DNA of 63,000 bases, counting the filler, from an uncultured Methanosarcinales archaeon (GTDB taxonomy: Archaea; Nanobdellota; Nanobdellia; Woesearchaeales; BS150m-G63), in assembly GCA_964630685.1 (NCBI GenBank). It is 4 parts of 4 records of this genome, joined end to end, with 100 filler letters (N's around TTAATTAATTAA, not from the genome) between each part and the next. Parts side by side here need not be neighbours in the genome. Positions count along the whole stretch, not along the records: positions 47,844 to 61,312 come from CAZVVW010000016.1; 3 more parts are not named here. The stretch is one strand, 5' to 3'. A program made the translations under genes and the position numbers. Positions 3,370-61,412 of this stretch are shown here, in pieces. Positions within the stretch are counted from its first letter, which is position 1. Each line of letters starts with the position of its first letter. A model generated the notes under the pieces. It was not told the origin of the DNA. It saw only the letters and a program-made list of their open reading frames with translations, and made no database searches.

Positions 3370-3389
3370 TGTTTTGTTTAATTTTTTAT

Positions 3390-3890: not shown

Positions 3891-3902
3891 TTTTTGGTTA
3901 TT

Positions 3903-4976: not shown

Positions 4977-5003
4977 AATATTTTTATTTGTGTTTTAATT
5001 TGA

Positions 5004-5561: not shown

Positions 5562-5575
5562 CTTATCACCCATTA

Positions 5576-26629: not shown

Positions 26630-26729
26630 NNNNNNNNNNNNNNNNNNNNNNNNNNNNNNNNNNNNNNNNNNNNTTAATTAATTAANNNNNNNNNNNNNNN
26701 NNNNNNNNNNNNNNNNNNNNNNNNNNNNN
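26630..26729. other. Artificial contig linker
   Basis: N44-TTAATTAATTAA-N44. Confidence 0.98.
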
Positions 26730-33586: not shown

Positions 33587-34042
33587 TTACTTTTTCTTTA
33601 GATAATAAAATATTAAATAAATCACTCCAATAGTGATACAAGCATCTGCTATGTTGAAGATTGGCCAGATTCGGAAGTCTATAAAATCTATTATATGTCC
33701 TCTGAAAATTCTGTCGAGTAAATTGGAGAATGCTCCTGCTAAAATTAAGGAGATGGATAATTGTGCATTTCTCGCTTTTGGAAGATGCTCCCATAAATAA
33801 AGCACTCCGCCGAGAATCATTATTGTTAGGAAAATTAAAAGAGCGTTTGTGTTTTTTAGTAGTCCAAAACCAATTCCTGTGTTTGTTGCGAGAGTTATAT
33901 AAAAAAAGTTTTTGATTATTGTTATTGGTTGATGGAAAGTTAGGTTAGATACTGCTAAATATTTAATTAATTGGTCTATTAAGATTATTAGAATTCCAAG
34001 GGGAAGAAATTTAGATTGTTTTTTTGATCTTTTTTTTACCAT
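33587..34042 (-). CDS. lspA: Lipoprotein signal peptidase (signal peptidase II)
   Basis: DQLIK, NTGIGFG, GAFSNLLDR, DFID, FNIAD. Confidence 0.93.
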   Translation of the reverse strand: MVKKRSKKQSKFLPLGILIILIDQLIKYLAVSNLTFHQPITIIKNFFYITLATNTGIGFGLLKNTNALLIFLTIMILGGVLYLWEHLPKARNAQLSISLILAGAFSNLLDRIFRGHIIDFIDFRIWPIFNIADACITIGVIYLIFYYLKKK

Positions 34043-45132: not shown

Positions 45133-45486
45133 ATGAATGAATTAGAAAAAACTTTTATGGAGGAATATGAGGGCGCACAAGAACAGTTGATGAAAGAGAG
45201 ATATAAAAATGCAACGATTCTTTTTTCAAAAGCTCTTTTTGCTTTGTGTGATGTATTAATAGATCTAAAATTAAAAAGATTACCTAAAAATCATGGAGAA
45301 AGATTTAGAATTTTAGAGGAATATTTTCCTAAAGTTTATTTTATTGTAGATAATTTATTTTCAGATTATACTGATGCTTATTATAAATCAATAGCAGAAG
45401 AAGTACCTAAGAAGATAAAAAATGAGATTAAAAAAATTGCAGAGTTTGAAACACTACCAAAAGAGATTAAAGAAATTATTAGATGA
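45133..45486 (+). CDS. HEPN-like domain protein
   Basis: YKNATILFSKALFA...PKNHGERF; paired with a nucleotidyltransferase. Confidence 0.7.
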   Translation: MNELEKTFMEEYEGAQEQLMKERYKNATILFSKALFALCDVLIDLKLKRLPKNHGERFRILEEYFPKVYFIVDNLFSDYTDAYYKSIAEEVPKKIKNEIKKIAEFETLPKEIKEIIR

Positions 45487-45979
45487 TAATTTATTAGATA
45501 TAATCTTTTTTGGGTCTTTTGTTAAAGGGGGAACTCCTAAAGATATAGATCTTGCTTTAATAGTGAAAGAGAAAAAAGGTTTGGATTCTGTTAAGAAAGA
45601 TTTAAGCAAAATTATTGGTGGGGAGTTAGATATACAAATAATTGATCTTGATTCTATTTATAATCAGATATGGTTAACCCTGATTAAAGAAGGATTTAGT
45701 GTTAAGAAAAATAAATTTTTGTATGGGATGTATAACATAAAACCTTTAATTTTATTTAAATATTCGCTTAAGAAATTAAATAATGTTCAAAAGGTGCAGT
45801 TTGAGAGGGGGATTAAGAAAGTTTTGGAGAAAGAAGGCTCGTTTCTTACGAGATCTGTTGTTTTGGTTCCTCTTAAATTGAAAAATGAGTTTATAGATTT
45901 TCTGAAAACATGGAATATATATTATGAAAGCCAAGAGTATGAACTAGTTCCTTTTATGCGAAAAGAAAATTTTATTTAA
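45422..45979 (+). CDS. Minimal nucleotidyltransferase (MNT) domain protein
   Basis: IIFFGSFVKG..PKDIDLALI. Confidence 0.85.
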   Translation: MRLKKLQSLKHYQKRLKKLLDDNLLDIIFFGSFVKGGTPKDIDLALIVKEKKGLDSVKKDLSKIIGGELDIQIIDLDSIYNQIWLTLIKEGFSVKKNKFLYGMYNIKPLILFKYSLKKLNNVQKVQFERGIKKVLEKEGSFLTRSVVLVPLKLKNEFIDFLKTWNIYYESQEYELVPFMRKENFI

Positions 45980-46150: not shown

Positions 46151-47008
46151 ATGACTGATTTAATTGTTTTCAACATTAAAAATAGAATTCACACTATTAG
46201 AGGAGTTCAAGTTATCTTAGATAGTGATTTAGCTGAATTGTATGGAGTTCCAGTAAAGGCATTAAATCAAGCAGTCCAAAGAAATATCTTGCGTTTTCCA
46301 AAAGATTTTACGTTTCAAATAAATAAAGAAGAATTTAATTTTTTGCGGTCACAATCTGTGACTGCAAATTCTAATTGGAGTAAAAAACGTTTTTTACCTT
46401 ATGCATTTACAGAACAAGGGGTTGCTACATTATCAAGTATCTTGAAAAGTGATAATGCTGTTAAGATTAATATTCAAATTATGAGAACTTTTGTTGCTAT
46501 GAGGAAATTCATTTCTAAAAATGCAGAAATGTTTTTTAGATTGGATAATGTTGAAAGAAAACAGATAGAGTATGATGGTAAATTTGAAAAAGTGTTTGAT
46601 GCATTGGAAACCTATGAAAAAAAGCAAGGAATATTCTTTGATGGGCAGGTGTTTGATGCATATACATTTGTTTCTGATCTTGTTCGTAGTGCTAAAGAGT
46701 TCATAATATTAATTGATAATTATGTTGATGATTCTGTTCTTACTCTCTTAAGTAAGAAAAAAGTAGATATTGGTGTTAAAATTTATACAAAGGATGTTTC
46801 TGAACAATTGATTTTAGATGTTAAAAAATTTAATTCTCAATATAAAGGTTTAGAAATTAAAAAATTTAAAGATTCACATGATAGGTTCTTAATTATTGAT
46901 TCTCAAGTTTATCATTTCGGTGCTAGTCTTAAGGATCTTGGTAAGAAATGGTTTGCTTTTACAAAGTTAGATGTTAAATCATTGGAATTATTAAAAAGAT
47001 TGAGGTGA
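46151..47008 (+). CDS. ORF6N domain protein with C-terminal PLD-like domain
   Basis: IRGVQVILDSDLAELYGV..KALNQAVQRN..RFP...PYAFTEQG; HDRFLIID...GASLKDLG. Confidence 0.9.
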   Translation: MTDLIVFNIKNRIHTIRGVQVILDSDLAELYGVPVKALNQAVQRNILRFPKDFTFQINKEEFNFLRSQSVTANSNWSKKRFLPYAFTEQGVATLSSILKSDNAVKINIQIMRTFVAMRKFISKNAEMFFRLDNVERKQIEYDGKFEKVFDALETYEKKQGIFFDGQVFDAYTFVSDLVRSAKEFIILIDNYVDDSVLTLLSKKKVDIGVKIYTKDVSEQLILDVKKFNSQYKGLEIKKFKDSHDRFLIIDSQVYHFGASLKDLGKKWFAFTKLDVKSLELLKRLR

Positions 47009-47743: not shown

Positions 47744-47843
47744 NNNNNNNNNNNNNNNNNNNNNNNNNNNNNNNNNNNNNNNNNNNNTTAATTAATTAAN
47801 NNNNNNNNNNNNNNNNNNNNNNNNNNNNNNNNNNNNNNNNNNN
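47744..47843. other. Artificial contig linker
   Basis: N44-TTAATTAATTAA-N44. Confidence 0.98.
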
Positions 47844-48059
47844 GCAGGAGGAATAGCTTTAGCGGCTTTCGGAATATTATCAAATCCTGTTGGTTGGGCA
47901 ATAGGGATTGGAGGATTACTATTCGCAGCAGGAACTTTAGTATATGATCATTTTTTCAATACAGATGTAGAATGGGCCTCATTTATTCTTTTCAGAGAAT
48001 ATGATGTAGAACAATTAAAAAACATTAAATGCGAAGTAATGCCAATAGCACAAACTTAA
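47844..48059 (+). CDS. 3' part of the gene that begins at 718(-)
   Basis: AGGIALAAFGILSNPVGWAIGIGGLLFAAG...KCEVMPIAQT*; first 55 nt are the reverse complement of 1..55, in frame. Confidence 0.85.
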   Translation, partial: AGGIALAAFGILSNPVGWAIGIGGLLFAAGTLVYDHFFNTDVEWASFILFREYDVEQLKNIKCEVMPIAQT

Positions 48060-48117
48060 CATATAATAACCCAAGCATAACACAAATAATTTAAATAAAC
48101 AAAACTTACTAAAAAAA

Positions 48118-48261
48118 ATGAAATCAAAAAAAGGGTTCGAATTTTCTTTTATGGCTAAATTAATTTTAATCTTAATGCTTTTAATAATATTTTTAGTTTT
48201 TCTCATAGTAAAATTCAAACCAAACATATTGGGTTCAATAAGTTTATTTGACGTATGGTAA
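48118..48261 (+). CDS. 47-aa micro-pilin (absent from the ORF track)
   Basis: MKSKKG|FEFSFMAKLILILMLLIIFLVFLIV...; stop overlaps the next ATG region. Confidence 0.75.
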   Translation: MKSKKGFEFSFMAKLILILMLLIIFLVFLIVKFKPNILGSISLFDVW

Positions 48262-49190
48262 TCAAAAATAAAAAAGCAGGTTTCCTAAATAGTAAATTAG
48301 GAAAAATAATTATTGTGTTAGTGGTATTAGTTGTAATTATGTCTATATTCTACCCAAAAATCTGGAGCGGATTAGAAACAGCAATGCAAACAGTTGGAAT
48401 AAATATCTGCCTCAGTTCGAGAATGAATTCTGCAACATACAATCAAGAAATAGAAAGGCATATAGATTATGAAGAGTTTGAAGAAGCAACAGATATGTAC
48501 CTAGAATATCGTCAATGTTTTTCAGACCCACAACTAACACTAAATACAGAAAATACAGAGATATTAGCAGAACTCGTATGTAAAAAAGGATATTTCAATT
48601 ATTCTTCAGAAATATACAACCACCTTTCTTCAGAAAACCCTTCGGAAACAGAAAAAACTTGTTTGACCCTAGAAAACATCCAAGATTTCCACAATAGAAG
48701 AAAAAACAAAGACTCACTAGAACTATTAGAACAATTAGAAATACTAGATTATGAAGTTCCTTCATGGAATTTATTAATAGCGGAAGCATATCTTGCTTCA
48801 GAAAAATATGAAGACTCATACGAATCCGCGTACTATAATTCTTGGGATTTAGAAGATTTAACAACAGATCAAAAAGAAAAAATAAAAGAAATAGTAGAAA
48901 ACATTTACACTTCAATAATAGCAAAAAAAATGGTAGATATTTATGATGATTCAGAATCCTTTTGTATATATCGGACAACATATTTTCCTTATACCACAAT
49001 CTCTTTAGGGGATTTATCAGACGCTACAACTGAACAAGGAAAAAGCATAGCAATTGGAGGAGATGAATCTCATTTAGAAATGGGAGAAGATTTAACTGGA
49101 TGTTATACAATAAAATCCGATTCAGAAAAAGTGATGATTGAAGATTATTGCGCATCACATTGTAATGAAATAATGGAATATACATCATAA
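48255..49190 (+). CDS. Pilin-like protein with helical (TPR-like) body
   Basis: KKA|GFLNSKLGKIIIVLVVLVVIM; LLIAEAYLASEKYEDS. Confidence 0.75.
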   Translation: MVIKNKKAGFLNSKLGKIIIVLVVLVVIMSIFYPKIWSGLETAMQTVGINICLSSRMNSATYNQEIERHIDYEEFEEATDMYLEYRQCFSDPQLTLNTENTEILAELVCKKGYFNYSSEIYNHLSSENPSETEKTCLTLENIQDFHNRRKNKDSLELLEQLEILDYEVPSWNLLIAEAYLASEKYEDSYESAYYNSWDLEDLTTDQKEKIKEIVENIYTSIIAKKMVDIYDDSESFCIYRTTYFPYTTISLGDLSDATTEQGKSIAIGGDESHLEMGEDLTGCYTIKSDSEKVMIEDYCASHCNEIMEYTS

Positions 49191-49216
49191 AAAAAGAAAA
49201 TAAAAAAACACCAAAA

Positions 49217-49501
49217 ATGAAAAATAAAATAATGAACAAAAAAGCACTAGTTTCAAGAACAATAGTTTTAATGACTTTGGGAATAATAGTCTTAATTATT
49301 CTAATTATACTTTTTTCAGGAAAAGCGAGTATTTTTTCAAAAGGTGTAGGTGGAATTTGTACAGATCAAGAAGGAACATGTTATTATCCTACAGCAGAAT
49401 GTCCTGAAGAGAAACCAATAAAAATGATGGCAAAAGGATGCCCATCAAATGAAACAGATACTGAGAAAAAATCTGGATTTTGTTGCACTTCTTTAGGATA
49501 A
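49217..49501 (+). CDS. Small pilin-like protein
   Basis: NKKA|LVSRTIVLMTLGIIVLIILIILF; Cys-rich head ending FCC. Confidence 0.85.
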   Translation: MKNKIMNKKALVSRTIVLMTLGIIVLIILIILFSGKASIFSKGVGGICTDQEGTCYYPTAECPEEKPIKMMAKGCPSNETDTEKKSGFCCTSLG

Positions 49502-49543
49502 ACAAAAACAAAACAAAAGAAAGCTTAACAAAACAAAATGAAC

Positions 49544-49620
49544 AAAACAATAAGACAGAAGATTTCGGCTAAAGCACCCATCTTCAGTGTTGCCTTTTAG
49601 GCAACCCAAAAGTCTTAAAG
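49544..49620 (+). repeat. Structured intergenic repeat, copy 3
   Basis: Same core; identity with copy 1 extends through the next gene's MNKKAI codons. Confidence 0.9.
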
Positions 49621-49643
49621 CTTTATTCATTTTAAAAAACAAA

Positions 49644-49874
49644 ATGAACAAAAAAGCAATAACCACACAAACAATAATTTTATTAGTATTAATTCTCATA
49701 GTAGTAGTAACTTTTTTGTTTTTCTTTTCGAGTCAAGCAAATATTTTTTCAAAAGGAACAATGAGTTGCGAATCAAAAGAAGGCGTGTGTATGAATGTCA
49801 CAGAATGTGAAGGCATTATTTCAAATTTCAAATGCACTAAATCAGAATATGCATGTTGCATAAAAATGACTTAG
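49644..49874 (+). CDS. Small pilin-like protein (76 aa)
   Basis: MNKKA|ITTQTIILLVLILIVVVTFLFFF; ends ACC. Confidence 0.85.
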   Translation: MNKKAITTQTIILLVLILIVVVTFLFFFSSQANIFSKGTMSCESKEGVCMNVTECEGIISNFKCTKSEYACCIKMT

Positions 49875-49911
49875 CAAAATTTATATAGTATATTCAATTA
49901 AATTTAGTAAA

Positions 49912-50394
49912 ATGAATAAAAGAGGATTTACAACAGAAGGAAAAATAGGTGGAATTGCGTTAGTTCTAGTTGCAGTGGTGGTGATGTTATTTATTTTTCA
50001 AGGTCCTGCAAAAGCAGCAAATCTAGAATTCATATCACAGACACAAATAAAAGTAAAATTAGATAAATGTACTTTTGATGCAGAACAGGCATATTCTAAA
50101 GGAATTTCATTTTCAGATACAGATGACGATGGACACCCAAATACTTGTGATATTTGTTTAGGTGTAGATCCTGGAGCAAATACTGAAGATGGACAAAATG
50201 ACTTAGATGATGATTTAGATGGTATGCCAAACGATTGCGACAAAGATGCTTATAATCCCAACGAATTCACCTGTTTAGATTATAGGGTGTGGGATAAACA
50301 AAACAATAAATGGTTAAATGCTTGTTGTACAGAACTTGCAGGAGACAATAATTTTAAAATAAGTCCCAACCTCATCTGTAAAAAAGTAACCTAA
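49912..50394 (+). CDS. Pilin-like protein with TSP3-like Ca-binding repeats
   Basis: MNKRG|FTTEG...; DTDDDGHPNTCD, DDDLDGMPNDCD. Confidence 0.8.
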   Translation: MNKRGFTTEGKIGGIALVLVAVVVMLFIFQGPAKAANLEFISQTQIKVKLDKCTFDAEQAYSKGISFSDTDDDGHPNTCDICLGVDPGANTEDGQNDLDDDLDGMPNDCDKDAYNPNEFTCLDYRVWDKQNNKWLNACCTELAGDNNFKISPNLICKKVT

Positions 50395-50395
50395 G

Positions 50396-52255
50396 ATGGA
50401 TTTCTTTAACCAAAAAAAGGCATTTATGGGACTTTCTTTATCTCAAATGGTGGGCATAATATTAGTTATACTAATCTTTATTCCGTTTACAAGTTTATTT
50501 GCAAAAACATTCAACACTTTTTTTGGAGGGGAAAACCCATCCATAGAAAATTTTCGCTCACTCACAGAAAAGGTTCAAGAATTACTTCTAAATCCAGATA
50601 TGGTTGCAATAGAAACAAACTTCCCTTATTTTATTAGGGACAATGATTATGTTATAGTTGCTTTCGATTATGAATGGTATGGAGATGGCACAGATTCTAC
50701 AGAAGATAATGTCCCTTATGGTCCATTTGAATCAAATCTATGTCACGATGAAGGAATAAGGAGGCCAATGGAATGTTTAGATAAAGCTTGTTTGTGTATT
50801 TATGAAGACACAGCAGTAAATGATTTCATGGAAGGGGGAGATCCAGCACCAATAGAATGTGTTCCATTCGGAAATAATCTCTTCTTTTCAGGTGCAGAAG
50901 GTTACCCAGATTATTTAGAAGATAAAGACGGAACTAACGATGGATATAAAAAAGAATTCATTGAAGACACAATTAATTTTACAAACCTAACAAAATTAGA
51001 TTATGAGTTTTTTGTAATCTATGGAGAATGCGGAAATTCAGGATGTAAGGTTTATGAAAATAATGATTGTGATGAGGAATTTAATCAATTTGACGCAAGA
51101 AAACTTTACATAGAAAAATATTATGATTTAGATAGTCATAAAACTCATATACTCATCGCAGTTCAAGAAGGCAAAATAAATCAAAGGGCAGAAAACGCAT
51201 CAAAATTAATAGAAGCATTAAGAGAATCAGAACAAATGGTTGTACAAACCCCTTTATCTGAAATGCCAATAACTGGCCCGCCAACAATTTCCAATGAAAC
51301 AATAAAAAGAATACTTGAAAGTGCAAGTTCTCCAGCAGTCATAGCATATCAAGCATTTTATGATTTTGGAGTTCAATATGATATAGATCCGGCATTTGCA
51401 TTAGCATTTTTCAGACATGAATCAAATTATGGAACATCCAATAACTGGGTCGGAAAACCATCAATTTGCCTACCTAATAGTTCTAATAATATTGGAAATA
51501 TAAAATACACTCAAAGTTGTACAAACAATTATGGCGCAACAAATTGTAAGGGATTCTGCCATTATCCTACATGGGAAAAAGGAATTGAAGCATGGTACTC
51601 ATTGATTAAAAATAGTAATCATTATGTTGCTGGAGGGAGAGAGACTATCGCAGAAATACTTCCAGTATATGCTCCATCAAGCGATAACAACAATATTCCA
51701 GAATATATTACAGCAGTATCAGATTCAGTATCTTCTTATCGAGAGTTAGAACCCAACATAGAATTAAGACTAGTATCTATTGATTCAAACGAGGTTTCTT
51801 GCACCGGACAATGTAAATTAACACAAGAAGCATATGTTAAATTAATTGAAGCAAATAATATAGCAAAACAACAAGGAAGAGAATTGCGCGTATATTCTTC
51901 TTATAGAACTCCGGAACACCAAAGGACTCTTTTCTTAAATGGCGATTGCAATAGGCAAATGGTCGCAGGCCCAACAGTAGATTCATCAGAGTGTAGTATG
52001 AATAATCCAATAATTCAAAATTTAAATAATTTTAACGGCCCACATACTACTGGAGGGGCAGTAGATTTAAGGTTCGAAGACACTTCCTGGGATGATATGA
52101 CTACAGCAGATAAACAACAATTAGAAGATGTGATGTATCAAGTAGGGTGGGTAAGATACGCAAATGAATGGTGGCATTTTGAATACGAAACTATTAGGTG
52201 GGCAAGAGCAGACACTAATAATGATGGTTTTCCAGATCAATCAGCATTGGTATAA
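50396..52255 (+). CDS. Pilin-like protein fused to a GH73/lysozyme-like glucosaminidase and an M15 (VanX/VanY-like) peptidase
   Basis: KKA|FMGLSLSQMVGIILVILIF; IDPAFALAFFRHESNYG...NNIGNI...YPTWEKGI...YAP; SSYR, HTTGGAVD, EWWHF. Confidence 0.85.
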   Translation: MDFFNQKKAFMGLSLSQMVGIILVILIFIPFTSLFAKTFNTFFGGENPSIENFRSLTEKVQELLLNPDMVAIETNFPYFIRDNDYVIVAFDYEWYGDGTDSTEDNVPYGPFESNLCHDEGIRRPMECLDKACLCIYEDTAVNDFMEGGDPAPIECVPFGNNLFFSGAEGYPDYLEDKDGTNDGYKKEFIEDTINFTNLTKLDYEFFVIYGECGNSGCKVYENNDCDEEFNQFDARKLYIEKYYDLDSHKTHILIAVQEGKINQRAENASKLIEALRESEQMVVQTPLSEMPITGPPTISNETIKRILESASSPAVIAYQAFYDFGVQYDIDPAFALAFFRHESNYGTSNNWVGKPSICLPNSSNNIGNIKYTQSCTNNYGATNCKGFCHYPTWEKGIEAWYSLIKNSNHYVAGGRETIAEILPVYAPSSDNNNIPEYITAVSDSVSSYRELEPNIELRLVSIDSNEVSCTGQCKLTQEAYVKLIEANNIAKQQGRELRVYSSYRTPEHQRTLFLNGDCNRQMVAGPTVDSSECSMNNPIIQNLNNFNGPHTTGGAVDLRFEDTSWDDMTTADKQQLEDVMYQVGWVRYANEWWHFEYETIRWARADTNNDGFPDQSALV

Positions 52256-52297
52256 ACAACAAAAATTATATAAACTAATTTCTTTACAACACACAGT

Positions 52298-53350
52298 ATG
52301 AAAAAAAGAGGGCAGATTACTCATGAGATTTATTTTATCATGATGGAAGTGTTTATAGCACTTGCAGTAGCATTTTTTCTTTTCAAATATGTTAATCTAG
52401 TGGTTGAAGATACAACTTTAGAAAGAACAATCTTATCAAGAGACTTAGCTCTTCTTTCAAACACAGTTTATTCCGCACCAGGAAATTTAGTTTACACATA
52501 TGAAAGTAGAACAAATCTTTCAATGTTTGATTACGCATTTACTAAAAAACCTCCCCTGATGGAACCACAATTAACAGTGCTTCAGCAAGGAGTTGCCGAA
52601 CTTTCTTACCCATTTGTATTAAACAATCTTTTTGCAAGAGATATAGGTAAATCTGATAAACACACTGTTTTTTCTCCTCAAGAAATATTATTTCAAAAAG
52701 AAGAACAAGAAATAACAGTCAAAAAAGAATTAACCCCTCATTTGGAGGGGGCGGTTTGCCCGGTTCTAGATACAAAAAAAACAAACACGACAACATTAAA
52801 GGTACTTTTAGATCCTGGAAAAGATTATGAAAATCCCGGAGCAAATAATACAGCACTCAATTTAATAGAATACAAAATAACCATTGATATTTCAAAAGAA
52901 ATAGGAAGGCTGTTACAACAAAATTTTCCAAATATAGTTTTTACGAGAGAGAACACAAAATCTAACTTAACAGAAAGATTAACAAAAATAAAATTAGAAA
53001 ATGCAAACATAACTCTAAGCATCCATACAGGAGATTACCAACCTACAAAACCAAATACATTTAAGATGTATTATAATTCAAAATCCAACAAAAAAAAAGA
53101 AATCCAAAAATTAGCTTGTTTTATTTCTAATGAAATATCAGGGCAGACCACACTCAAAACAACAACCCTCCCATTAGAAATAGAAACACTACCAGATTTA
53201 GATTCAAGAAGAATATTAACACCCACAAGCAAGATTCAACTATATCTAGAAGTTGGGAATATTCAAGCATATGCAAATAATAACCCTTTACTCGATTACC
53301 CCCAAATATCCAATGCAATAAAAGACGCAATTGAATTGTATCACAGATAA
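52298..53350 (+). CDS. Pilin-like protein fused to an N-acetylmuramoyl-L-alanine amidase (Amidase_3) domain
   Basis: MKKRG|QITHEIYFIM; VLLDPGK, IEY, VFTRE, LTER, LSIHT, YLEVGNI. Confidence 0.8.
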   Translation: MKKRGQITHEIYFIMMEVFIALAVAFFLFKYVNLVVEDTTLERTILSRDLALLSNTVYSAPGNLVYTYESRTNLSMFDYAFTKKPPLMEPQLTVLQQGVAELSYPFVLNNLFARDIGKSDKHTVFSPQEILFQKEEQEITVKKELTPHLEGAVCPVLDTKKTNTTTLKVLLDPGKDYENPGANNTALNLIEYKITIDISKEIGRLLQQNFPNIVFTRENTKSNLTERLTKIKLENANITLSIHTGDYQPTKPNTFKMYYNSKSNKKKEIQKLACFISNEISGQTTLKTTTLPLEIETLPDLDSRRILTPTSKIQLYLEVGNIQAYANNNPLLDYPQISNAIKDAIELYHR

Positions 53351-53351
53351 G

Positions 53352-53933
53352 ATGAAAACAAAAATAAACCACATAAAAGGAAAAAAAGGCTTATTCACTT
53401 TTAACATGGTATATATGATACCTAGATTAATTTTCTTAATAATAGTTCTCTTTTCAGTCATCATGCTTGTAGGGATGTTCCTAAAGATACATGCAGATAC
53501 TTTTTATGTGGAAGCAGACCTCTTTGCCCAAAGCTTAATTTATTCTCCTCACGGAATATCCTATTATAATCCTTTGTTGTATAAGGTTCAGCCAGGAATA
53601 ATAGATAAAACAGAATTCACATCTGGAATTATAGAATCCAGAATAAACAATAATTCTTTTTATTATGGTAAACAAAACAAACACATCGCAGCAAAAATAA
53701 CTTTAACTAGTGTGGATAATTCCACAAACCACACAATTTACTATAATGAGGGGAGAGGGAAAGCATATGGATATAAATTTTGGAACCCCATAGCTAAAGC
53801 GGAAATAGAAGGAAAGGGCGCAGCAAGATATTTGCCAAAAATAATACCTACCCTAATAAAGGAATCATCAGGCCACAATGTAATTTACATTCCAGGAAGC
53901 ATATCATTTGAAATCACAATGCCCAACAAATAA
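53352..53933 (+). CDS. Pilin-like protein
   Basis: KKG|LFTFNMVYMIPRLIFLIIVLFSVIML. Confidence 0.8.
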   Translation: MKTKINHIKGKKGLFTFNMVYMIPRLIFLIIVLFSVIMLVGMFLKIHADTFYVEADLFAQSLIYSPHGISYYNPLLYKVQPGIIDKTEFTSGIIESRINNNSFYYGKQNKHIAAKITLTSVDNSTNHTIYYNEGRGKAYGYKFWNPIAKAEIEGKGAARYLPKIIPTLIKESSGHNVIYIPGSISFEITMPNK

Positions 53934-53991
53934 AATAATTAAAATAATCAAAAAAAACAAAACAAAAATAAATAACAATCAAAAAGAAAAA

Positions 53992-55542
53992 ATGAAATCA
54001 AAAAAAGCATTCATAGCATCTACCTTGATAGATTTTTATGCCTTTGTAGTCTTCATATTAGTTGTTTTAATCTTTTTTGTAATTTTTCTATTAATGAAAG
54101 GTTGTGATGGATCACCCTCTTTAGACGATGTGCCACATCAAAAATTAAACGTAGATTCTAATTATGTTCTTTTAACTTGGTTAAAAAATCCATTAGATTC
54201 ACAAACAAGATCAGCAATCTCAAAAATTTATAAGATAAATCAAATAAATAGTTTTTCAAATGGCCACACAACAAAAGTACTTAATTTTTCAAAACAACAA
54301 AACTATACTTTTTTTTTGAATGCCTCTCCACGTATAATCTACAGTAATGCAACAATAGATTTAGGGGAACTATTTTCTTTTACCAATAATCATATAGCAT
54401 TCGTTTTAGCTAACTCAGATCCTAAAATAAAAGAATGGGAAAATCTATGTAAAATATTATCAACAACAATACTCCCTTATAGAATATTAAAAAAATATAC
54501 TAGCTCATTCACATATGGGTTAAGAGATAATGAAGGTACGTCCTGTTTAGATAAAACAGTTCCACTAATTGAAGAACAATGGAAAAATGCAACACTTTTT
54601 ACGATGAAAAATCATAACTGGGACAATAATACTCCCCCAAAAAATATGCTTGTTTTAGTATCAGATAAATGTATAAATTATTCTCCTCAAGACTCCATTT
54701 CTGAAGAAATTCAAGAAACCGCAATAGCCAAGAATATATCAATATGGCAGATGTATAGAAGCAACGACCCTCAAGAAATTAAAGATTGTAAAGACAAACA
54801 TAACCAATTAAGTCAGATGGGGGGAGAGTTTTTCACATACAACAACACGATTAATTTTACAGACCACATTCAAAATAAAATATTGGAAATATCTAATGAT
54901 CGATCAGAGATTTCTATATCTGTTGATTTTGGAACTGATGCCAAGATCGATTTTAAAAGTAACAATACATTTAATCACACTACACTTGAATTCAAGAAAG
55001 CACTAAATACATACACCACAAAGAAGTGTACCCCAAATACAAAATGTCTATTCCCTATAAAGATTTCAGGAAAAAAAGGTAGTTTTTCTTTAGGTAATAT
55101 ACAAGTACAAAAAACATTAGGGGATGCTAAAAAGAGGATTAGAAGTAATTTAAAAAAGGCAAATATCGCAGATTTAATAGCATTCAGTCAAACAGACGAA
55201 GATTTAGAAGAATTAAGAGGCGAAAACATAAATTCTTTTTTTAACAACGCATATCATGATTGGTGGCATTTAATAATCAATTATCCAGATGGAACAAAAG
55301 AAGAATATGGTCACAGTTACACAGCAGATACCATCCCTTCAATTATTTTAGCTGCAACAATGAGGGTAGGTCTTTTTCCAATACTTCCAGCAGGATTAAG
55401 TTATGTATATGATTATTCAATTCTCCCAGAATCGGAAAAAATAAACATCAATCAATCAATACCTTCATTGAATAAAGATCCAATAAACATAGAGTTTTCA
55501 AATTGGGTAATAACATATGCTTCATTAATTCCTTTTACTTAA
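53992..55542 (+). CDS. Large pilin-like protein, possible degenerate vWA-like domain
   Basis: MKSKKA|FIASTLIDFYAFVVFILVVLIFF; LVLVSD...AIAKNISI...QMGGEFF. Confidence 0.75.
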   Translation: MKSKKAFIASTLIDFYAFVVFILVVLIFFVIFLLMKGCDGSPSLDDVPHQKLNVDSNYVLLTWLKNPLDSQTRSAISKIYKINQINSFSNGHTTKVLNFSKQQNYTFFLNASPRIIYSNATIDLGELFSFTNNHIAFVLANSDPKIKEWENLCKILSTTILPYRILKKYTSSFTYGLRDNEGTSCLDKTVPLIEEQWKNATLFTMKNHNWDNNTPPKNMLVLVSDKCINYSPQDSISEEIQETAIAKNISIWQMYRSNDPQEIKDCKDKHNQLSQMGGEFFTYNNTINFTDHIQNKILEISNDRSEISISVDFGTDAKIDFKSNNTFNHTTLEFKKALNTYTTKKCTPNTKCLFPIKISGKKGSFSLGNIQVQKTLGDAKKRIRSNLKKANIADLIAFSQTDEDLEELRGENINSFFNNAYHDWWHLIINYPDGTKEEYGHSYTADTIPSIILAATMRVGLFPILPAGLSYVYDYSILPESEKININQSIPSLNKDPINIEFSNWVITYASLIPFT

Positions 55543-55654
55543 AACTATAAAAAAGAAAAACTAAAAGAAAAATAAAAACAAATAAAACAAAGCAACACTA
55601 AACAATGGACAATTTACAATAAACAATAAACAACAAATAAAACTAACAGAAAAA

Positions 55655-56359
55655 ATGAAATCAAAAAACAAAGAGATTCAAAAAATCTCTCAGCATTTTA
55701 ATTTCAAAAAAATGAAATCAAAAAAAGCAATGATATTTAATATATCTTTAGTAGTTATAACTATAGTCGTACTTTCAACAGCATTCATTGCAATAAATAA
55801 TAAAATAGAAAAAGTAAAAAACCAAGAACCTATTGGAACAAAACAATACCAATTAATAACAACCTATCAAGAAGCAGAAAAAGCACAATTCTATATAGAA
55901 CAATCAGCAAAGTACCATATACTAGAAATCAAAAAACAATTAATAAAAAAAAGTGGAAGTATCCAAAACAAGGAATACATTCAAAATTTTACAAATTTTT
56001 TAGAAAAAAAATTAAATAACTCGCTTTCATTATATCCTTATAAAAATATAATTGTCCCTTTACTCAATAATTATGAAATATCATTTACTGAAGAAAACAC
56101 TTTATTAACAGCAGCGGCAAAAGAGGACATGGTTTTATCTCATTTATATGGAGAATATCATTTAAATCCATCTTTCATCCAAGATTTTAGTTTATGTGGA
56201 GATGGAGTAAAAGAAGGGAATGAAGAATGTGACGATGGGATTGATGACGCAAATGAATTATTTATAACAACAAACCCATTTAATCCAGACACAGATGGAG
56301 ATGGAATAACAGATGGAGAGGAATTGTCTAACGGAACAAATCCCATTAGCCCCAATTAA
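55655..56359 (+). CDS. Pilin-like protein with C-terminal TSP3-like repeat
   Basis: KKA|MIFNISLVVITIVVL; CGDGVKEGNEECDDG; DTDGDGITDGEE..GTNP; start may be the downstream Met. Confidence 0.8.
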   Translation: MKSKNKEIQKISQHFNFKKMKSKKAMIFNISLVVITIVVLSTAFIAINNKIEKVKNQEPIGTKQYQLITTYQEAEKAQFYIEQSAKYHILEIKKQLIKKSGSIQNKEYIQNFTNFLEKKLNNSLSLYPYKNIIVPLLNNYEISFTEENTLLTAAAKEDMVLSHLYGEYHLNPSFIQDFSLCGDGVKEGNEECDDGIDDANELFITTNPFNPDTDGDGITDGEELSNGTNPISPN

Positions 56360-56448
56360 TCTTAAAATCTTAAAAAATAGGGTATTCTAATTTCTATTCT
56401 TAATAACACAAAAATATAAATACAATAACTTAAACCAAAATCAATACA

Positions 56449-57666
56449 ATGATAAATATGCCATACCCAACAATAATTGAAAAAATAAAAGAGGGCTCAG
56501 GACTTTCAGAAACAGAAATAACTCAAAAAATAGATAAAAAACTCAAGCAACTTTCAGGATTAATTTCAAAAGAAGGCGCAGCACATATTCTAGCAAACGA
56601 ACTCGGAATAAAAATATTTGAGATTCCAAAAAACATCCAAATTAAAGATATTCTAGAGGGGATGCGTAGCATAGATATTGCAGGAAAAGTACAACAAATC
56701 TACGAAGTAAGAGATTTTGAGACCGAAAAAGGAAAAGGAAAAGTTGGATCTTTCATGATGGCAGATGAAACCGGCTCAATTAGAGTTGTATGTTGGTATG
56801 ATCAAACAGAAACAATAGAAAAATTAACAAAAGACCTCACAATAAGATTGGTTGGAGGATATGTAAGAACAAATAATAACAAAAAAGAGATCCACCTCAA
56901 CGAAAGAAGTAAAGTTATATTCAACCCAAAAGGAGTCACAATTGGAGAAGTAAAATCATTTACTTCAACAAGAAAAAAATTATCAGAATTAACCGAAAAC
57001 GCAAGTGAAGTAGAAGTTTTAGCAACCATTGTTCAAGTATTTGAGCCAAGATTCTTTGAAGTTTGTCCAGAATGTAATAGGAGAGCAAGACAAAGAGAAG
57101 ATGGATTTTTTTGTGAAGAACACAACAAAGTAACACCAACATACTCTTATGTATTAAACTTATTGTTAGACGACGGAACAGACACAACTAGAACAATATT
57201 TTTCAGCAAACAATTGGAAAATTTAATTGGAAAAACAAAAGAAGAAATTCTTACTTACAAAGAAAACATCTCAGATTTTGAACAAATAAAAACAGACCTT
57301 CTTGGAAAAACAATAAAAGTAATCGGAAGAGTCAAGAAAAACGAAATGTTTGACAGATTAGAAGTAATATCTCAATTAGTTTTTACAGATATAGATCCTG
57401 AAAAAGAAATAAAAAGATTAGCAGAAACCCAAACAACAGCAAATTCAACAGAATCACCAACAGAAAAATCCACAACAGAATCAACTACTCAAGAATCAAC
57501 ACAAGAACCAATCAAAGAATCAACACAAGAATCAACTCTTGAAGAACCAAAACCATTAGAAGAAGCAATAGAAACAATAACAGAACCAATAGAAACACAA
57601 AACACAACAGAATCAACAGAAGAAAAACCAACTACTGAATCAACAACAGAACAAGATGCTGTTTAA
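56449..57666 (+). CDS. rpa: Replication protein A (OB folds + Zn ribbon, acidic tail)
   Basis: GLISKEGAAHILA, DETGSIRVVCW, CPEC...CEEH, LDDGT. Confidence 0.9.
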   Translation: MINMPYPTIIEKIKEGSGLSETEITQKIDKKLKQLSGLISKEGAAHILANELGIKIFEIPKNIQIKDILEGMRSIDIAGKVQQIYEVRDFETEKGKGKVGSFMMADETGSIRVVCWYDQTETIEKLTKDLTIRLVGGYVRTNNNKKEIHLNERSKVIFNPKGVTIGEVKSFTSTRKKLSELTENASEVEVLATIVQVFEPRFFEVCPECNRRARQREDGFFCEEHNKVTPTYSYVLNLLLDDGTDTTRTIFFSKQLENLIGKTKEEILTYKENISDFEQIKTDLLGKTIKVIGRVKKNEMFDRLEVISQLVFTDIDPEKEIKRLAETQTTANSTESPTEKSTTESTTQESTQEPIKESTQESTLEEPKPLEEAIETITEPIETQNTTESTEEKPTTESTTEQDAV

Positions 57667-58138
57667 AACCCACATAGCTTTTGCATTATTGATTTCTTTA
57701 TATTTTTTTCATTATTTCACCACCCCACCAATATTATCAATTTTAATAATTCTCTTTGCATCACTTATTCCAGATTTAGATACAATCAATTCAAAAATAT
57801 CAAAGATAAACCCCTTAAGAAAACTAACAAAATATATATTCAAACACAGAGGGATGCTCCACTCTTTATTCACACCAATTTTAATCTACTTAATTATTTA
57901 CATAATTCACAAAGAAATAGCACTATTAATTGCAATAGGGTACACATCCCACCTCTTCCTAGATTCTTTTACAAAACAAGGAATAAAACCATTCTACCCA
58001 CTAACAAACTTAAAATTTAAAGGAAACACCACCACAAATAGCATAATCGAGAAGCTTTTATTCTGGATAATTGCAATATTAATCCTACTTAAATTCTTCA
58101 CTCCCCACTGGACATTTGTGCGTAAGCTATTTAAATAA
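57656..58138 (+). CDS. YdjM-family membrane-bound metal-dependent hydrolase
   Basis: KTH, LIPDLD, HRGMLHS, SHLFLDSFT. Confidence 0.88.
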   Translation: MLFKTHIAFALLISLYFFHYFTTPPILSILIILFASLIPDLDTINSKISKINPLRKLTKYIFKHRGMLHSLFTPILIYLIIYIIHKEIALLIAIGYTSHLFLDSFTKQGIKPFYPLTNLKFKGNTTTNSIIEKLLFWIIAILILLKFFTPHWTFVRKLFK

Positions 58139-58267
58139 AGCCCACTTTATACTATTTAGCTGTTAGAAAACAGCGAACTCCACTCTCTGGGGCCACGAAA
58201 TACATCGCGAGCCCATAATTTAAGGAGGGTATGAAATAAAATGCGAATAGCAAAGGAGGTGGTTTAG

Positions 58268-58570
58268 ATGGAAAAATCTGAAACCCCAAACAACACACCT
58301 GAAAAAAAGTTTAGTACAGGAGTGATAAGTGCTACAATCTGGAAAAACTCCGGCACATCAAAAAAAGGAGAACCAGTAGAATTTAGGACGATTTCTTTAC
58401 AGAGACGTTACACAGATAAAGATGGAAATTGGCAGTCAACCAATTCTTTAAGAATTAATGACTTACCCAAAGCCACCTTGGTATTAAACAAGGCATACGA
58501 ATACATTGTTCTAAAAGAACAAGCAGATTCTTCGGATACTAATGAAATTTCTGAAGAAATTGTATATTAA
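58268..58570 (+). CDS. Small conserved protein, possible PC4/SpoVG-like nucleic-acid-binding fold
   Basis: PEKKF..G.ISATIWKN...RRYTDKDGNWQST.SL..NDLPK; strong GGAGGTG RBS. Confidence 0.7.
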   Translation: MEKSETPNNTPEKKFSTGVISATIWKNSGTSKKGEPVEFRTISLQRRYTDKDGNWQSTNSLRINDLPKATLVLNKAYEYIVLKEQADSSDTNEISEEIVY

Positions 58571-58664
58571 TTGAAAAATTGGGTGCTTATCACTTAGGAA
58601 TTTTCGGAAAATCTTCCTAAATTCATTTAAAGATAAGCACTCTTTATTATTTTAGGTGATAATC

Positions 58665-59660
58665 ATGGAAAAAGAAAAACAAGAAAAAGAACAATCAAAA
58701 CAAGAACCAACAACAATCACAAAGAAAAAGGAAATATCTATTTTAGATTTGCCCGGCGTTGGAGCTGCAACAGCAGAAAAATTAAAGAGTTTTGGATTCA
58801 CAACTTTAATGTCTATCGCAGTAGCTTCTCCAGGACAACTCATGGATGTTTCAGGCTTAACAGAAAGTGCAGCAAGAAAAGTAATCAATTTTGCAAGAAA
58901 TGCAATGGATATGGGTTTTGAATCCGGAAGCGATCTATTAAAAAGAAGAGCATCTGTACAGAAAATAAATGTAGGATCTGAATCTTTCAACCAATTAATG
59001 GGCGGAGGATTTGAATCTGGAGTAATAACAGAGTGTTTTGGAGAATATGGTTCAGGAAAAACACAAATAGCTCATTTATTGGCAGTAAATGTCCAAAAAC
59101 AAATACCTAATGCAGAAGCAGTTTATATTGATACAGAAAACACATTTAGGCCAGAGAGATTAATTCAATTAGCAGAAGGTGCAGGACTAAATCCTGAAAA
59201 AGTATTGAAGCACGTTAAAGTTGCTAGAGCATATAATTCAGACCACCAATTATTACTCGCGGAAAAAGTGGAAGATATGCTTAAAGAAGATGAAACCAAT
59301 ATAAAAGTAGTGATAATAGATTCATTAACTTCCCATTTCAGAGCAGAATTTATTGGAAGAGGCACTTTAGCAGAAAGGCAACAAAAACTTAACAAACATA
59401 TGCACACCTTATTAAAGATAGCAGATGTTTATAATGTTTTAGTTTATGTGACTAACCAAGTGATGGCAAAGCCAGATACTTTTTTTGGAGATCCAACACA
59501 AGCAATTGGCGGACATGTAGTCGCACATTCATCTGCTTTTAGAATCTATCTAAGAAAAGGCAAAAAAGGTAGTAGGGTAGCAAAACTTGTAGATTCTCCA
59601 AATTTACCTGATGGCGAATGTAACTTTATGGTCGAAACAGAAGGTCTAAGAGACCTTTAA
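58665..59660 (+). CDS. radA: DNA repair and recombination protein RadA
   Basis: HhH DLPGVG, GEYGSGKTQ, YIDTENTFRPER, GRGTLAERQQ, TNQV. Confidence 0.97.
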   Translation: MEKEKQEKEQSKQEPTTITKKKEISILDLPGVGAATAEKLKSFGFTTLMSIAVASPGQLMDVSGLTESAARKVINFARNAMDMGFESGSDLLKRRASVQKINVGSESFNQLMGGGFESGVITECFGEYGSGKTQIAHLLAVNVQKQIPNAEAVYIDTENTFRPERLIQLAEGAGLNPEKVLKHVKVARAYNSDHQLLLAEKVEDMLKEDETNIKVVIIDSLTSHFRAEFIGRGTLAERQQKLNKHMHTLLKIADVYNVLVYVTNQVMAKPDTFFGDPTQAIGGHVVAHSSAFRIYLRKGKKGSRVAKLVDSPNLPDGECNFMVETEGLRDL

Positions 59661-59782
59661 TTTTTTCTTTTTTATTCAATTTTACAAACCACTAAAAAGC
59701 ATAATTTTAAAAATACATTCTTATTATTCTGAGTCCAAGGCACACTATTGTGCTTTAATATATTAGATAGGTGAAATAAAAT

Positions 59783-60208
59783 ATGTATGGAAATCAAGGT
59801 GGCTTTCAGCCAAGAAGTTTTGCTCCAGTTAATGTTGGAGATGAAGTAGACGTAAAGATAGAAGCAGTAGGAGATAAAGGCGACGGTATTGCAAAGATTA
59901 AAGGCTTTGTTTTATTCATACCCAATGCCAAAGAAGGAGAAGAAGTTAAAGTAAAGATTACTAAAGTTCTTCGAAGAGTCGGTTTTGCAGAAGTAGTTGG
60001 AGCAGGATCTGCACCAGCAGAAGAACCTGCACCAGCAGAAGAACCTGCACCAGCAGAAGAACCTGCACCAGCAGAAGAAACAGAAGAACCTGCACCAGCA
60101 GAAGAAACAGAAGAACCTGCACCAGAAGCTGAAGCTGAACCTAAAGCAGAAGAAGAAGCACCAAAAGATACAGAAGATTTTGGTGAAGATTTAGAAGAAG
60201 CAAAATAA
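59783..60208 (+). CDS. Single TRAM domain RNA-binding protein with acidic EEPAPA repeat tail
   Basis: VKIEAVGDKGDGIAKIKGFVLFIP; 18-bp coding repeats at ~60010-60130. Confidence 0.9.
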   Translation: MYGNQGGFQPRSFAPVNVGDEVDVKIEAVGDKGDGIAKIKGFVLFIPNAKEGEEVKVKITKVLRRVGFAEVVGAGSAPAEEPAPAEEPAPAEEPAPAEETEEPAPAEETEEPAPEAEAEPKAEEEAPKDTEDFGEDLEEAK

Positions 60209-60327
60209 ACATCTTTTTCTAATTTTTTCTTTTTTTTATTTTCAAATCAATAAGAAACACTAAAAATTAATCTATATTCTGCACTATATAAATCTTTTTA
60301 TACCAATTTAGCTAAAACAATAACAAT

Positions 60328-60615
60328 ATGGAAAGTAAAACCTTAAATTTATTGGTAACACTCACTGCATTTGCATTTGTTAGTGCTTTCTTATTTACTT
60401 TTTCTTGTACAGGCAATGGCGAAACATTAGCAGGTCAAGCATACTCGACACAAAACTGCGTTTATTGTGCAGAATACTGTGGAAATGTACACACACAAGA
60501 AGGGGGAACAATAATTTCTTCTTCAACCACCAATATCAAAGCATTATCAGAAGGATGTACAGGAGATTTCACATGGGCACCAGCAAACACAGATGTTAAA
60601 TTATGCTGTAAATAA
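60328..60615 (+). CDS. Small secreted Cys-rich protein
   Basis: N-terminal hydrophobic helix, LAGQAY, terminal CCK. Confidence 0.65.
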   Translation: MESKTLNLLVTLTAFAFVSAFLFTFSCTGNGETLAGQAYSTQNCVYCAEYCGNVHTQEGGTIISSSTTNIKALSEGCTGDFTWAPANTDVKLCCK

Positions 60616-60843
60616 ACTCTTTTTAGAATTCTGTTTGAAAAGACCACTAAAAGATTTACAAGAATAAATTCTTTTTTATTTAATATTATTTTAATATTTT
60701 AAGGTATTCCTTTTGTTTGTATGATGCAACCTAACAGTCAAAATAAATTTAATCTATTGTACAGTACAACAAGCACCACTCACCTTTATGTTAGCAGGTG
60801 GAAAAGATAAGTTTGGGGAGATAAATGAAAAATCTTATGAGTG

Positions 60844-61311
60844 TTAAATATAACATGTACATTCTCCACATTCTTGACAATTGTGCCAAGTACCACTACT
60901 CTGAATTAAATAATTATCAAATCGCCCGTTATAAACACTTGCGTAATTAGTACATGAAGTTCCATATTTATTAGAACAATAAGAAGTAGTAAAATCAAAA
61001 CCCATCAATTTACAAAAATGCTTGCAATCATCACCTCCACCATCACCCCTAGAACCCACTATATCATATTGTGATGAGGCGCCATCCCTTATGTGTGGGT
61101 TAGTTAAAAGAACATAATTTGAGCCCATAATACAATCAGAATAAGATGCCCTCTCATCCTCTAACTGTGTATTACTCTCCCTTACCCATACACTTCTTGG
61201 AGGGCACCACACTGTTAACACTGGAACATTATCTAAACCAACAGTGATATCACCTTCAACAGTTAAATCATCTTTAACAGTTAAATCTCCTCTGATTTCA
61301 GCATTTGCCCC
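60844..61311 (-). CDS. 3' part of a surface protein (beta-helix-like repeats + Cys-rich C-terminal domain), truncated by contig end
   Basis: Frame open to the gap: AEIRGDLTVKDDLTVEGDITV..., then DDCKHFCKLMGF...CQECGECTC. Confidence 0.7.
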   Translation of the reverse strand, partial: GANAEIRGDLTVKDDLTVEGDITVGLDNVPVLTVWCPPRSVWVRESNTQLEDERASYSDCIMGSNYVLLTNPHIRDGASSQYDIVGSRGDGGGDDCKHFCKLMGFDFTTSYCSNKYGTSCTNYASVYNGRFDNYLIQSSGTWHNCQECGECTCYI

Positions 61312-61312
61312 A

Positions 61313-61412
61313 NNNNNNNNNNNNNNNNNNNNNNNNNNNNNNNNNNNNNNNNNNNNTTAATTAATTAANNNNNNNNNNNNNNNNNNNNNNNNNNNNNNNN
61401 NNNNNNNNNNNN
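61313..61412. other. Artificial contig linker
   Basis: N44-TTAATTAATTAA-N44. Confidence 0.98.

Follow-up and report, generated by a model that had tools for sequence, protein, structure and literature searches.

Archaeal proteins that combine a class III signal peptide (SPIII) with a functional C-terminal domain have been proposed to functionalise type IV filament (T4F) machineries (PMC13705601; PMC3387779). Archaea, prominently Nanoarchaeota, also encode peptidoglycan hydrolases, and two of these enzymes from haloarchaea kill a bacterium (Strock et al., PMC12352652). The present analysis concerns two adjacent genes, ORF1 (50396-52255, +; 619 aa) and ORF2 (52298-53350, +; 350 aa), in a 63,000-nucleotide stretch of DNA, below called the window, from an uncultured archaeon placed in Woesearchaeales (Nanobdellota; assembly GCA_964630685.1). 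They are the thirteenth and fourteenth of a row of seventeen genes (g01 to g17) with pilin-like N-termini. The predicted ORF1 protein carries two intact-looking hydrolase domains, one GH73-like and one of the M15/LAS type. The predicted ORF2 protein is not a one-off fusion and is a member of a large uncharacterised family with a shared leader, N-domain and Amidase_3 layout. Both may be wall hydrolases, surface-anchored or mounted on a T4F in the manner of a bindosome, and aimed at bacterial peptidoglycan; the chances for this reading, which rests on sequence, are evenly poised.

The closest published concept is the functionalised T4F of Sivabalasarma and Albers (PMC13705601). Like ORF1 and ORF2, the proteins of the Sulfolobales SPIII bindosome have a prepilin-type leader and helix followed by a large functional C-terminal domain, and their display on a T4F-derived surface assembly is proposed, as it is here. 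T4F genes are usually scattered in DPANN (Nanobdellati) genomes, and the motor genes of functionalised T4F in DPANN are non-adjacent, as at this locus (PMC13705601). The cargo differs: the bindosome displays solute-binding proteins, whereas here there are peptidoglycan-hydrolase domains and no ABC transporter nearby. Unlike bindosome genes, ORF1 and ORF2 also stand within a 17-gene pilin-like cluster. The words "peptidoglycan", "hydrolase" and "amidase" have no occurrence in the main text of PMC13705601.

Among archaeal peptidoglycan hydrolases, those termed modular by Strock et al. (2025) have a catalytic domain plus a wall-binding domain, with Sec/Tat signals only reported (PMC12352652). Woldo and Danwoldo of Halogranum salarium resemble ORF1 in having bacterial-type hydrolase domains (including PF01832) in an archaeal protein, presumed to be anti-bacterial. 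They possess a cell-wall-binding domain and Sec/Tat signals, whereas no such domain was detected in ORF1 or ORF2, which the criteria of that paper would have excluded; surveys of this design would miss leader-type archaeal hydrolases. In 12 of the 13 supplementary files of PMC12352652 no peptidoglycan hydrolase bears the label "PILIN" or "SPIII". For Woesearchaeota, Vigneron et al. inferred predation on the basis of pore-forming toxins as well as GH23 transglycosylases, with reference to the AR20 genome (PMC9723730). The GH23 lytic murein transglycosylases of AR20 and of the Lake A metagenome-assembled genomes (MAGs) come from the same phylum and share the inferred attack on the bacterial wall, but differ in enzyme family from the GH73, M15 and Amidase_3 domains found here; neither "pili" nor "pilin" occurs in the main text of that paper (PMC9723730). 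A preliminary description of this locus had held that archaeal peptidoglycan hydrolases are known in general and had named no earlier description of them as pilin fusions in a dedicated locus. In agreement with it, no description of archaeal peptidoglycan hydrolases with pilin leaders or class III signals was found in titles and abstracts, which cover the literature partially.

The bacterial Amidase_3 enzymes CwlD (7rag), CwlV (1jwq), AmiC (4bin, 5emi) and LytH (7tj4) have their fold in common with ORF2, which shares with them the Glu and second His zinc ligands and the catalytic Glu and has Lys as the first ligand instead. Their N-terminal parts differ, with an AMIN domain, SH3 domain or lipoprotein anchor in the bacterial enzymes and a prepilin-like helix plus a family-specific domain in ORF2. 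The PrgK/TraG-type hydrolases of Gram-positive conjugation combine an N-terminal membrane helix with at least two wall-cutting domains and open the wall locally for a surface machine. These enzymes act on the producer's own wall, and an archaeon has none. What the locus adds to these known kinds is a large leader-Amidase_3 family with recurrent active-site decay and a 17-gene pilin-like cluster with fast-diverging members.

Domain composition of ORF1 and ORF2

The preliminary description had reported ORF1 and ORF2 as adjacent genes with class III leaders and peptidoglycan hydrolase domains. Translation confirmed their positions and every motif listed (KKA-FMG, KKRG-QIT, RHESNYG, YPTWEKGI, VYAPS, SSYR, HTTGGAVD, EWWH), and the domain identities hold on the basis of Pfam, NCBIfam and, for ORF2, AlphaFold2 (AF2) and Foldseek. 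Of the Pfam families it had named for a hidden Markov model (HMM) search, PF01832 and PF01520 scored above their cut-offs, and PF01427 and PF02557 scored below.

ORF1 starts with a leader and hydrophobic helix (aa 1-36; 50396-50503, +) of sequence MDFFNQKKA/FMGLSLSQ, the slash marking the putative cleavage site. The GLSLS within KKAFMGLSLSQ resembles the KKA/QGLSLN start of the cluster genes g05 and g06. A public gene call (P0005, 609 aa) puts the start at Met11; the longer start was taken because P0006, a protein 74% identical to ORF1 from a second woesearchaeal contig (L001, below), retains MNFFNQKKAFMG and because all 16 neighbours of ORF1 have a charged leader. P0006 was also the one full-length relative of ORF1 found. 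The following Cys-rich N-domain (aa 37-293; 50504-51274, +) has no recognisable fold or family; a single homolog of it was found, and its nearest ESM Atlas clusters are Nanobdellota hypothetical proteins (scores of 0.87-0.88, a lead only).

In the GH73-like domain (aa 294-450; 51275-51745, +) the Glucosaminidase family PF01832 matches aa 320-412 by a narrow margin (E=5e-7, 30.8 bits, cut-off 30.2). Its relatives are 32-42% identical and fused to unrelated metallophosphatase, FGE-sulfatase and C39-like peptidase domains. Throughout the 9-row alignment of these relatives (A2), Glu342 (FFRHES; 51419-51421) and Tyr425 (VYAPS) are invariant (9/9); they are the putative counterparts of the catalytic Glu of GH73 and of the Tyr that is conserved in its Y-A-x-D motif. 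When the low-confidence model of ORF1 was searched with Foldseek, the top hits were GH73 enzymes: AtlE (4pia, E=9.8e-4), LytB, Acp and Auto. The LAS peptidases LdcB (4ox3) and Ply500 (2vo9) stood far down the same list. Sequence searches of the PDB gave no match for the whole of ORF1 or for the A2 profile, and a chance match to FosB only for the GH73 part.

The M15/LAS zinc-peptidase domain (aa 469-598; 51800-52189, +) contains SSYR, HTTGGAVD and EWWH, all kept in P0006; these fit the zinc and catalytic motifs S-x-Y-R, H-x-x-G-x-A-x-D and E-x-x-H of M15/LAS enzymes. Over the same residues ORF1 matches the NCBIfam D-Ala-D-Ala dipeptidase model PRK10178 (E=1.7e-12, 47 bits, with an equivalog cut-off of 176), and the domain is a significant relative but a member of no curated subfamily. 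The EWWH stretch aligns to VanX (1r44) in a weak match (E=0.15). Between SSYR and HxxGxAxD lies a hypervariable patch (aa ~504-551; 51907-52048, +) with no blastn match to L001 and 13% protein identity (over a block of 30 columns), where the remaining blocks have 50-93%. When ORF1 was compared by tblastn with 50,697 phage records, none matched, and a recent origin from an endolysin is unsupported on this ground.

ORF2 likewise begins with a leader and hydrophobic helix (aa 1-36; 52298-52405, +), MKKRG/QITHE, with Glu17 inside the helix. It continues with an N-domain (aa 40-142; 52415-52723, +) where another helix precedes a series of beta strands and where D49 and Y68 are nearly invariant, and ends with the Amidase_3 fold (aa 168-349; 52799-53344, +), in which E191, H243 and E318 are kept and Lys175 (codon 52820-52822) is the divergent position. 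The Amidase_3 family PF01520 matches aa 169-329 with E=1.2e-15 and 58.4 bits (cut-off 27). The structure prediction agreed: the AF2 model, built from the family alignment described next, has a mean predicted local distance difference test score (pLDDT) of 91.4 and a predicted TM-score (pTM) of 0.75, with a helix at 4-36, a break, a helix at 40-59, seven strands over 64-142 (at high pLDDT) and an alpha/beta domain at 168-349. Among the 51 PDB matches that Foldseek returned at E<=0.001, Amidase_3 enzymes ranked first (CwlD 7rag at 1.2e-11, AmiC2 5emi, CwlV 1jwq, 4rn7 and LytH 7tj4; target TM-score (TMt) 0.71-0.81); for full-length E. coli AmiC (4bin) the TMt is 0.43.

The ORF2 family was searched with HMMER against 1.84 billion representatives (clusters at 50% identity), which yielded 467 clusters at E<=1e-3, 105 at E<=1e-10 and 5 at E<=1e-30. 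Among the 148 matches listed, query excluded, 130 are 280-440 aa long (median 337.5) and 128 have [KR][KR][GA] in the first 30 residues. An alignment (A3) was prepared from the 80 of 152 sequences that match nearly end to end, leaving out fragments, two-stretch matches and longer fusions. All 80 have an N-terminal hydrophobic helix, preceded by [KR][GA] in 73; the 7 others look like truncated gene calls. [KR][KR][GA] is present in the first 30 residues of 72/80, compared with 11 of 712 thirty-residue windows from the rest of these proteins (1.5%). By column, K3 is K/R in 67/80, R4 is R/K in 66/80 and G5 is G/A in 67/80, and position 17 of the helix is polar (E, Q or D) in 69/80. Amidase_3 is matched by 64/80 at E<=0.01 (Pfam). 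The near-invariant positions are D49 (76), Y68 (74), C154 (78), D172 (72), C274 (78) and E318 (78). The taxonomy of the family rests on the window, on L001 and on ESM Atlas leads, in which the nearest clusters are Woesearchaeota and Nanobdellota "hypothetical proteins" at 0.88-0.91, leads only. A profile-profile comparison of the family with the relatives of ORF1 found no relationship.

A seventeen-gene cluster with class-III-like leaders

Class III leaders were recognised by a pattern scan of our own, which requires an upstream Met, then [KR][GAS] and behind it a hydrophobic window 17 or more residues long. The FlaFind criteria (a charged residue at -2, G/A at -1 and the start of a hydrophobic helix within the first ~30 residues) were taken second-hand from PMC3387779 and PMC13705601. 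In the window 22 open reading frames matched. Five lie outside the locus: a Sec-like 1088-aa protein, a lipobox protein, one spurious antisense frame and two large proteins beside a candidate peptidase gene discussed below. The other 17 are consecutive co-oriented genes, among which ORF1 (K-A/F) and ORF2 (R-G/Q) fit the pattern, as the preliminary description had proposed. The dedicated locus that it had suspected is thus larger, at 17 genes split over two contigs of the window.

Eight genes occupy 5573-2 (-): g01 (5573-5004), g02 (4976-3903), g03 (3890-3390), g04 (3369-2836), g05 (2761-2504), g06 (2366-2127), g07 (1923-844) and g08 (718-2), each with [KR][GAS] and then a hydrophobic helix. 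The other nine occupy 48255-56359 (+) and have pilin-like N-termini: g09 (48255-49190), g10 (49217-49501), g11 (49644-49874), g12 (49912-50394), ORF1 (g13), ORF2 (g14), g15 (53352-53933), g16 (53992-55542) and g17 (55655-56359). Four of the genes, in the two paralog pairs g05/g06 and g10/g11, encode proteins of 76-94 aa with 4-6 Cys and little beyond the helix and a small Cys-rich head. This layout makes them the obvious candidates for the subunits of a filament.

The synteny proposed as a check was found in one Woesearchaeota MAG. Its contig (JADHVD010000004.1, "MAG: Candidatus Woesearchaeota archaeon", 76.8 kb) is here called L001; of 41 stretches of GTDB genomes that matched the pattern, it alone was confirmed as a relative. 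It has all 17 genes in a single row, followed by RPA, YdjM and RadA, and the pattern scan recovered 17/17 of its locus genes. By blastn, window positions 1-5890 (reversed) correspond to L001 5733-1, and those from 47844 onward to L001 from 5679 onward; therefore the two window contigs abut in the genome. The predicted pilin-like cluster is conserved in this second woesearchaeon.

The contig with ORF1 and ORF2 (47844-61312; the N spacers of the window are at 8911-9010, 26630-26729, 47744-47843 and 61313-61412) is assigned to an archaeon because RPA-type OB folds and RadA/Rad51 (Pfam, 275 bits) are encoded just downstream, 0.1-2.3 kb away. Together with the gene order common to the Woesearchaeota MAG, this sequence evidence upholds the archaeal (woesearchaeal) origin claimed before. 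A mis-binned piece of bacterial (e.g. candidate phyla radiation) or viral DNA, with ordinary autolysin or endolysin genes, would account for the bacterial type of the domains and for the GH73-like relatives with bacterial-looking architectures. Contamination of this kind was rejected and its probability put close to nil: RadA and RPA are on the same contig, an independently assembled contig has the same order, ORF1 has no tblastn match in the 50,697 phage records and GC content is uniform along the window (the genome is ~30% GC).

The genes of the cluster diverge at different rates. Counted over the longer protein of each pair, g16 shares just 43% identity and g17 just 36% with its L001 ortholog (L001 11663-14126), while RadA is 90%, RPA 82% and the remaining locus genes 72-92% identical. 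Between the two contigs the central part of g16 and the C-terminal part of g17 have in effect been exchanged for other sequence, and these two proteins may be specificity or adhesin modules. In g17 a TSP3_bac match (38 bits, Pfam) marks Asp-rich, Cys-containing thrombospondin type 3 (calcium-binding) repeats, and g12 has a DxDxDG pattern that by eye appears similar. The proteins of g07 and g08 are paralogs; their L001 orthologs (3896-5894) have Gly-rich hydrophobic stretches near the C-terminus in addition to the leader helix and may be membrane-embedded at both ends.

Proposed catalysis, display and target

The scheme proposed here starts from domain identities, motif conservation, a locus structure and an archaeal context that are directly established. 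ORF1 and ORF2 would be exported by means of a short leader that is rich in Lys/Arg and has [KR][GA] at its end, and of the following helix of ~25 hydrophobic residues. Once inserted in the membrane, their leaders would be cut by an A24-type peptidase of the genome, and the helix would then either anchor the protein at the surface or feed an assembly resembling a type IV filament, in parallel with the display of SPIII substrate-binding proteins in the Sulfolobus bindosome. ORF1 would provide the chemistry, a GH73-type hydrolase for the glycan strand and an M15/LAS zinc peptidase for the stem peptide or for the D-Ala end of that stem. ORF2 would grip or position the peptidoglycan or form a structural part. 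Archaea have no murein, and the peptidoglycan substrate would therefore be bacterial. A bacterium serving as partner or prey would have its wall opened locally, at the contact site. Leader cleavage, filament incorporation, activity and target are thus all predictions of the scheme.

Several observations count against it. In ORF1, Peptidase_M15 (PF01427, 25.6 bits, cut-off 27) and VanY (PF02557, aa 474-597, 23.7 bits, cut-off 25) both fall below threshold, and the nearest NCBIfam model for the M15 domain is a dipeptidase and not a lytic endopeptidase; lytic M15 enzymes cut within peptide stems. The AF2 model of ORF1 from the 9-row alignment has a pLDDT of 42.6 overall and reaches 70-84 solely in parts of the GH73 region; the N-domain (below 50 over aa 33-288) and the M15 domain are poorly modelled. 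A peptidoglycan-binding domain was detected in neither ORF1 nor ORF2 at E<=0.1 (Pfam).

The zinc site of ORF2 is a further difficulty. In a sequence alignment its DPGK lines up with the DPGH of 5emi and 4rn7, and therefore Lys175 replaces the first zinc-ligand His. The resulting tetrad, K175-E191-H243-E318, is an incomplete version of the Amidase_3 set of His-Glu-His and catalytic Glu. Of the 80 aligned sequences, 42 have the consensus HEHE, 5 have KEHE (ORF2 itself, two close relatives and two unrelated rows) and 33 are variously degenerate. The best-scoring relatives beyond the ORF2 clade (P0015, P0016, P0019, P0020 and P0021) lost the Glu loop and the second His. In a FastTree phylogeny of the alignment with the four zinc-site columns removed, which has long branches and unsure details, ORF2 is placed within an all-degenerate group of 10 sequences (support 87) inside another of 14. 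The intact or degenerate label requires 19 parsimony changes, of which at least 7 fall on well-supported branches, compared with ~27 on average for shuffled labels. Loss of the predicted zinc site is therefore recurrent in a family whose other residues are conserved, and catalysis was repeatedly dispensable. Efficient amidase activity of ORF2 in this genome is unlikely, and binding or positioning of peptidoglycan, or a structural or scaffold role, is more likely than efficient cleavage. The earlier idea of three wall-cutting chemistries therefore stands for the three domain families and is doubtful for the third chemistry: ORF2 lacks the first zinc ligand and its nearest outside relatives are more decayed.

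These sequences could also mean that the whole ORF2 family is a structural or adhesive subunit resembling a minor pilin, with the Amidase_3 fold re-used non-catalytically and ORF1 the only enzyme. KEHE in place of HEHE, the further decayed relatives and the 38/80 degenerate sequences with at least 7 independent changes are in line with it, as is the retention of D49, Y68, C154, C274 and E318 in 74-78/80. The full tetrad in 42/80 and E318 in 78/80 suggest instead that many family members depend on catalysis or at least on the groove of the active site, and ORF2 itself retains 3 of the 4 residues. This alternative is a real possibility that falls somewhat short of even.

The filament side of the scheme meets difficulties of its own. 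In neither the 63-kb window nor the 21-kb L001 locus was a T4F ATPase or platform gene found, and the filament reading is weakened by their lack, judging by gene content; the missing ATPase is not unexpected because T4F genes are scattered in DPANN genomes. No pilin or class III HMM (NCBIfam) matched any of the 20 locus or neighbour proteins, and Pfam scans found no pilin family in the locus genes or in the 80 ORF2-family members. Foldseek with the whole ORF2 model returned amidase-domain matches only, the amidase domain dominating the search; the helix-plus-sheet N-terminal part of the model would fit a pilin-like "lollipop". A polytopic protein is the candidate for the archaeal prepilin (A24) peptidase; it is encoded at 25189-26280 (+), on a different contig from ORF1 and ORF2. 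It scores 22.7 bits with Arc_PepC, below the cut-off of 23.4; Peptidase_A24 of Pfam does not match it even at E<=10, and neither NCBIfam nor the PDB yields a match. It does contain the stretches YEDIKIG and SAGDAKL, which we take to be the two catalytic-Asp motifs.

Adjoining this candidate gene are two genes for large Cys-rich proteins (19004-21163, -, 719 aa; 21179-25150, -, 1323 aa) with class-III-like starts (MKKA/QVT and MKKRG/VTK, respectively). The 1323-aa protein also has a Hint/intein-like domain.

The lack of pilin HMM matches and of nearby motor genes would also suit a plain type II signal-anchor, in which an uncleaved N-terminal helix holds the enzymes on the archaeal membrane with neither prepilin processing nor a filament. 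Lys-rich n-regions are expected at ~30% GC, and Sec-type signals of this genome also start with KKA (e.g. 5576-8842 and 47430). Against such an anchor, K-[RK]-[GA] is kept at the extreme N-terminus (the 72/80 versus 1.5% given above) among members only ~25% identical, the polar residue within the helix is conserved in 69/80, and 17/17 clustered genes share the leader pattern, four of them with little more than a helix and a small Cys-rich head. The other exported proteins of the genome have short Sec-type signals or lipoboxes instead of long-helix leaders, and therefore the long-helix pattern is not a mere by-product of AT-rich composition. A plain anchor is judged unlikely, if not markedly so.

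The target and purpose of a displayed hydrolase can be read in a second way, as nutrient scavenging, with free peptidoglycan debris digested to supply an auxotrophic cell with amino sugars and amino acids. The closeness of the ORF1 M15 domain to a D-Ala-D-Ala dipeptidase model would fit this, bindosome-like display has been tied to substrate scavenging (PMC13705601), and Pfam scans found no toxin or pore-former in the locus. However, neither Pfam scans of the 17-gene locus and its flanks nor inspection of L001 found a transporter or downstream catabolic gene, and the fast-diverging g16, g17 and ORF1 loop look more like partner recognition, which is suggestive only. Scavenging is thought quite improbable.

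A bacterial host or prey for Woesearchaeota, which is the partner implied by displayed wall hydrolases, is plausible and was already proposed from other peptidoglycan-degrading genes (PMC9723730). The hosts of most Woesearchaeota and the way in which DPANN breach the envelope of a partner are questions on which ORF1 and ORF2 may bear. If the hydrolases are mounted on a pilin scaffold, this would give a testable mechanism for contact-dependent access of the archaeon to bacteria and extend the functionalised T4F from nutrient binding to enzymatic attack. The more specific idea of a "lytic bindosome" in Woesearchaeota/Nanobdellota is speculative and improbable as it stands. It would be a T4F-derived surface filament or pseudopilus with peptidoglycan-cutting or -gripping subunits, in which a leader-Amidase_3 core is combined with lineage-specific cutters such as ORF1, and g16, g17 and the ORF1 loop confer partner specificity. 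Were it true, the leader-Amidase_3 family would mark, in genomes, archaea that live as episymbionts or predators of bacteria. The family also provides a sequence marker for metagenome surveys, in which its occurrence can be correlated with that of bacterial partners.

Other features of the window

A sigma-70/terminator scan, which is not meaningful for an archaeon, found fewer sites than in shuffled sequences and was discarded. On a contig that also encodes eIF-1A and ribosomal protein S8e there is a gene for a bacterial-type lipoprotein signal peptidase (33587-34042, -; Peptidase_A8, 127.6 bits), and two frames (31333-31749, +; 60328-60615, +) have lipobox-like N-termini (LFISGC, TFSC). The predicted presence of Peptidase_A8 and lipobox-like frames on archaeal DNA is unusual for archaea. 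A 3208-aa predicted surface protein (9076-18702, -) contains CarboxypepD_reg, Big_13 and Glucodextran_B domains and a KRG-containing signal. An ORF6N protein (46151-47008, +; KilA-N-like, phage-associated, 110 bits) is encoded close to where the contig that neighbours the ORF1-ORF2 contig in the window ends, and its gene is adjoined by a nucleotidyltransferase-type pair (45133-45979).

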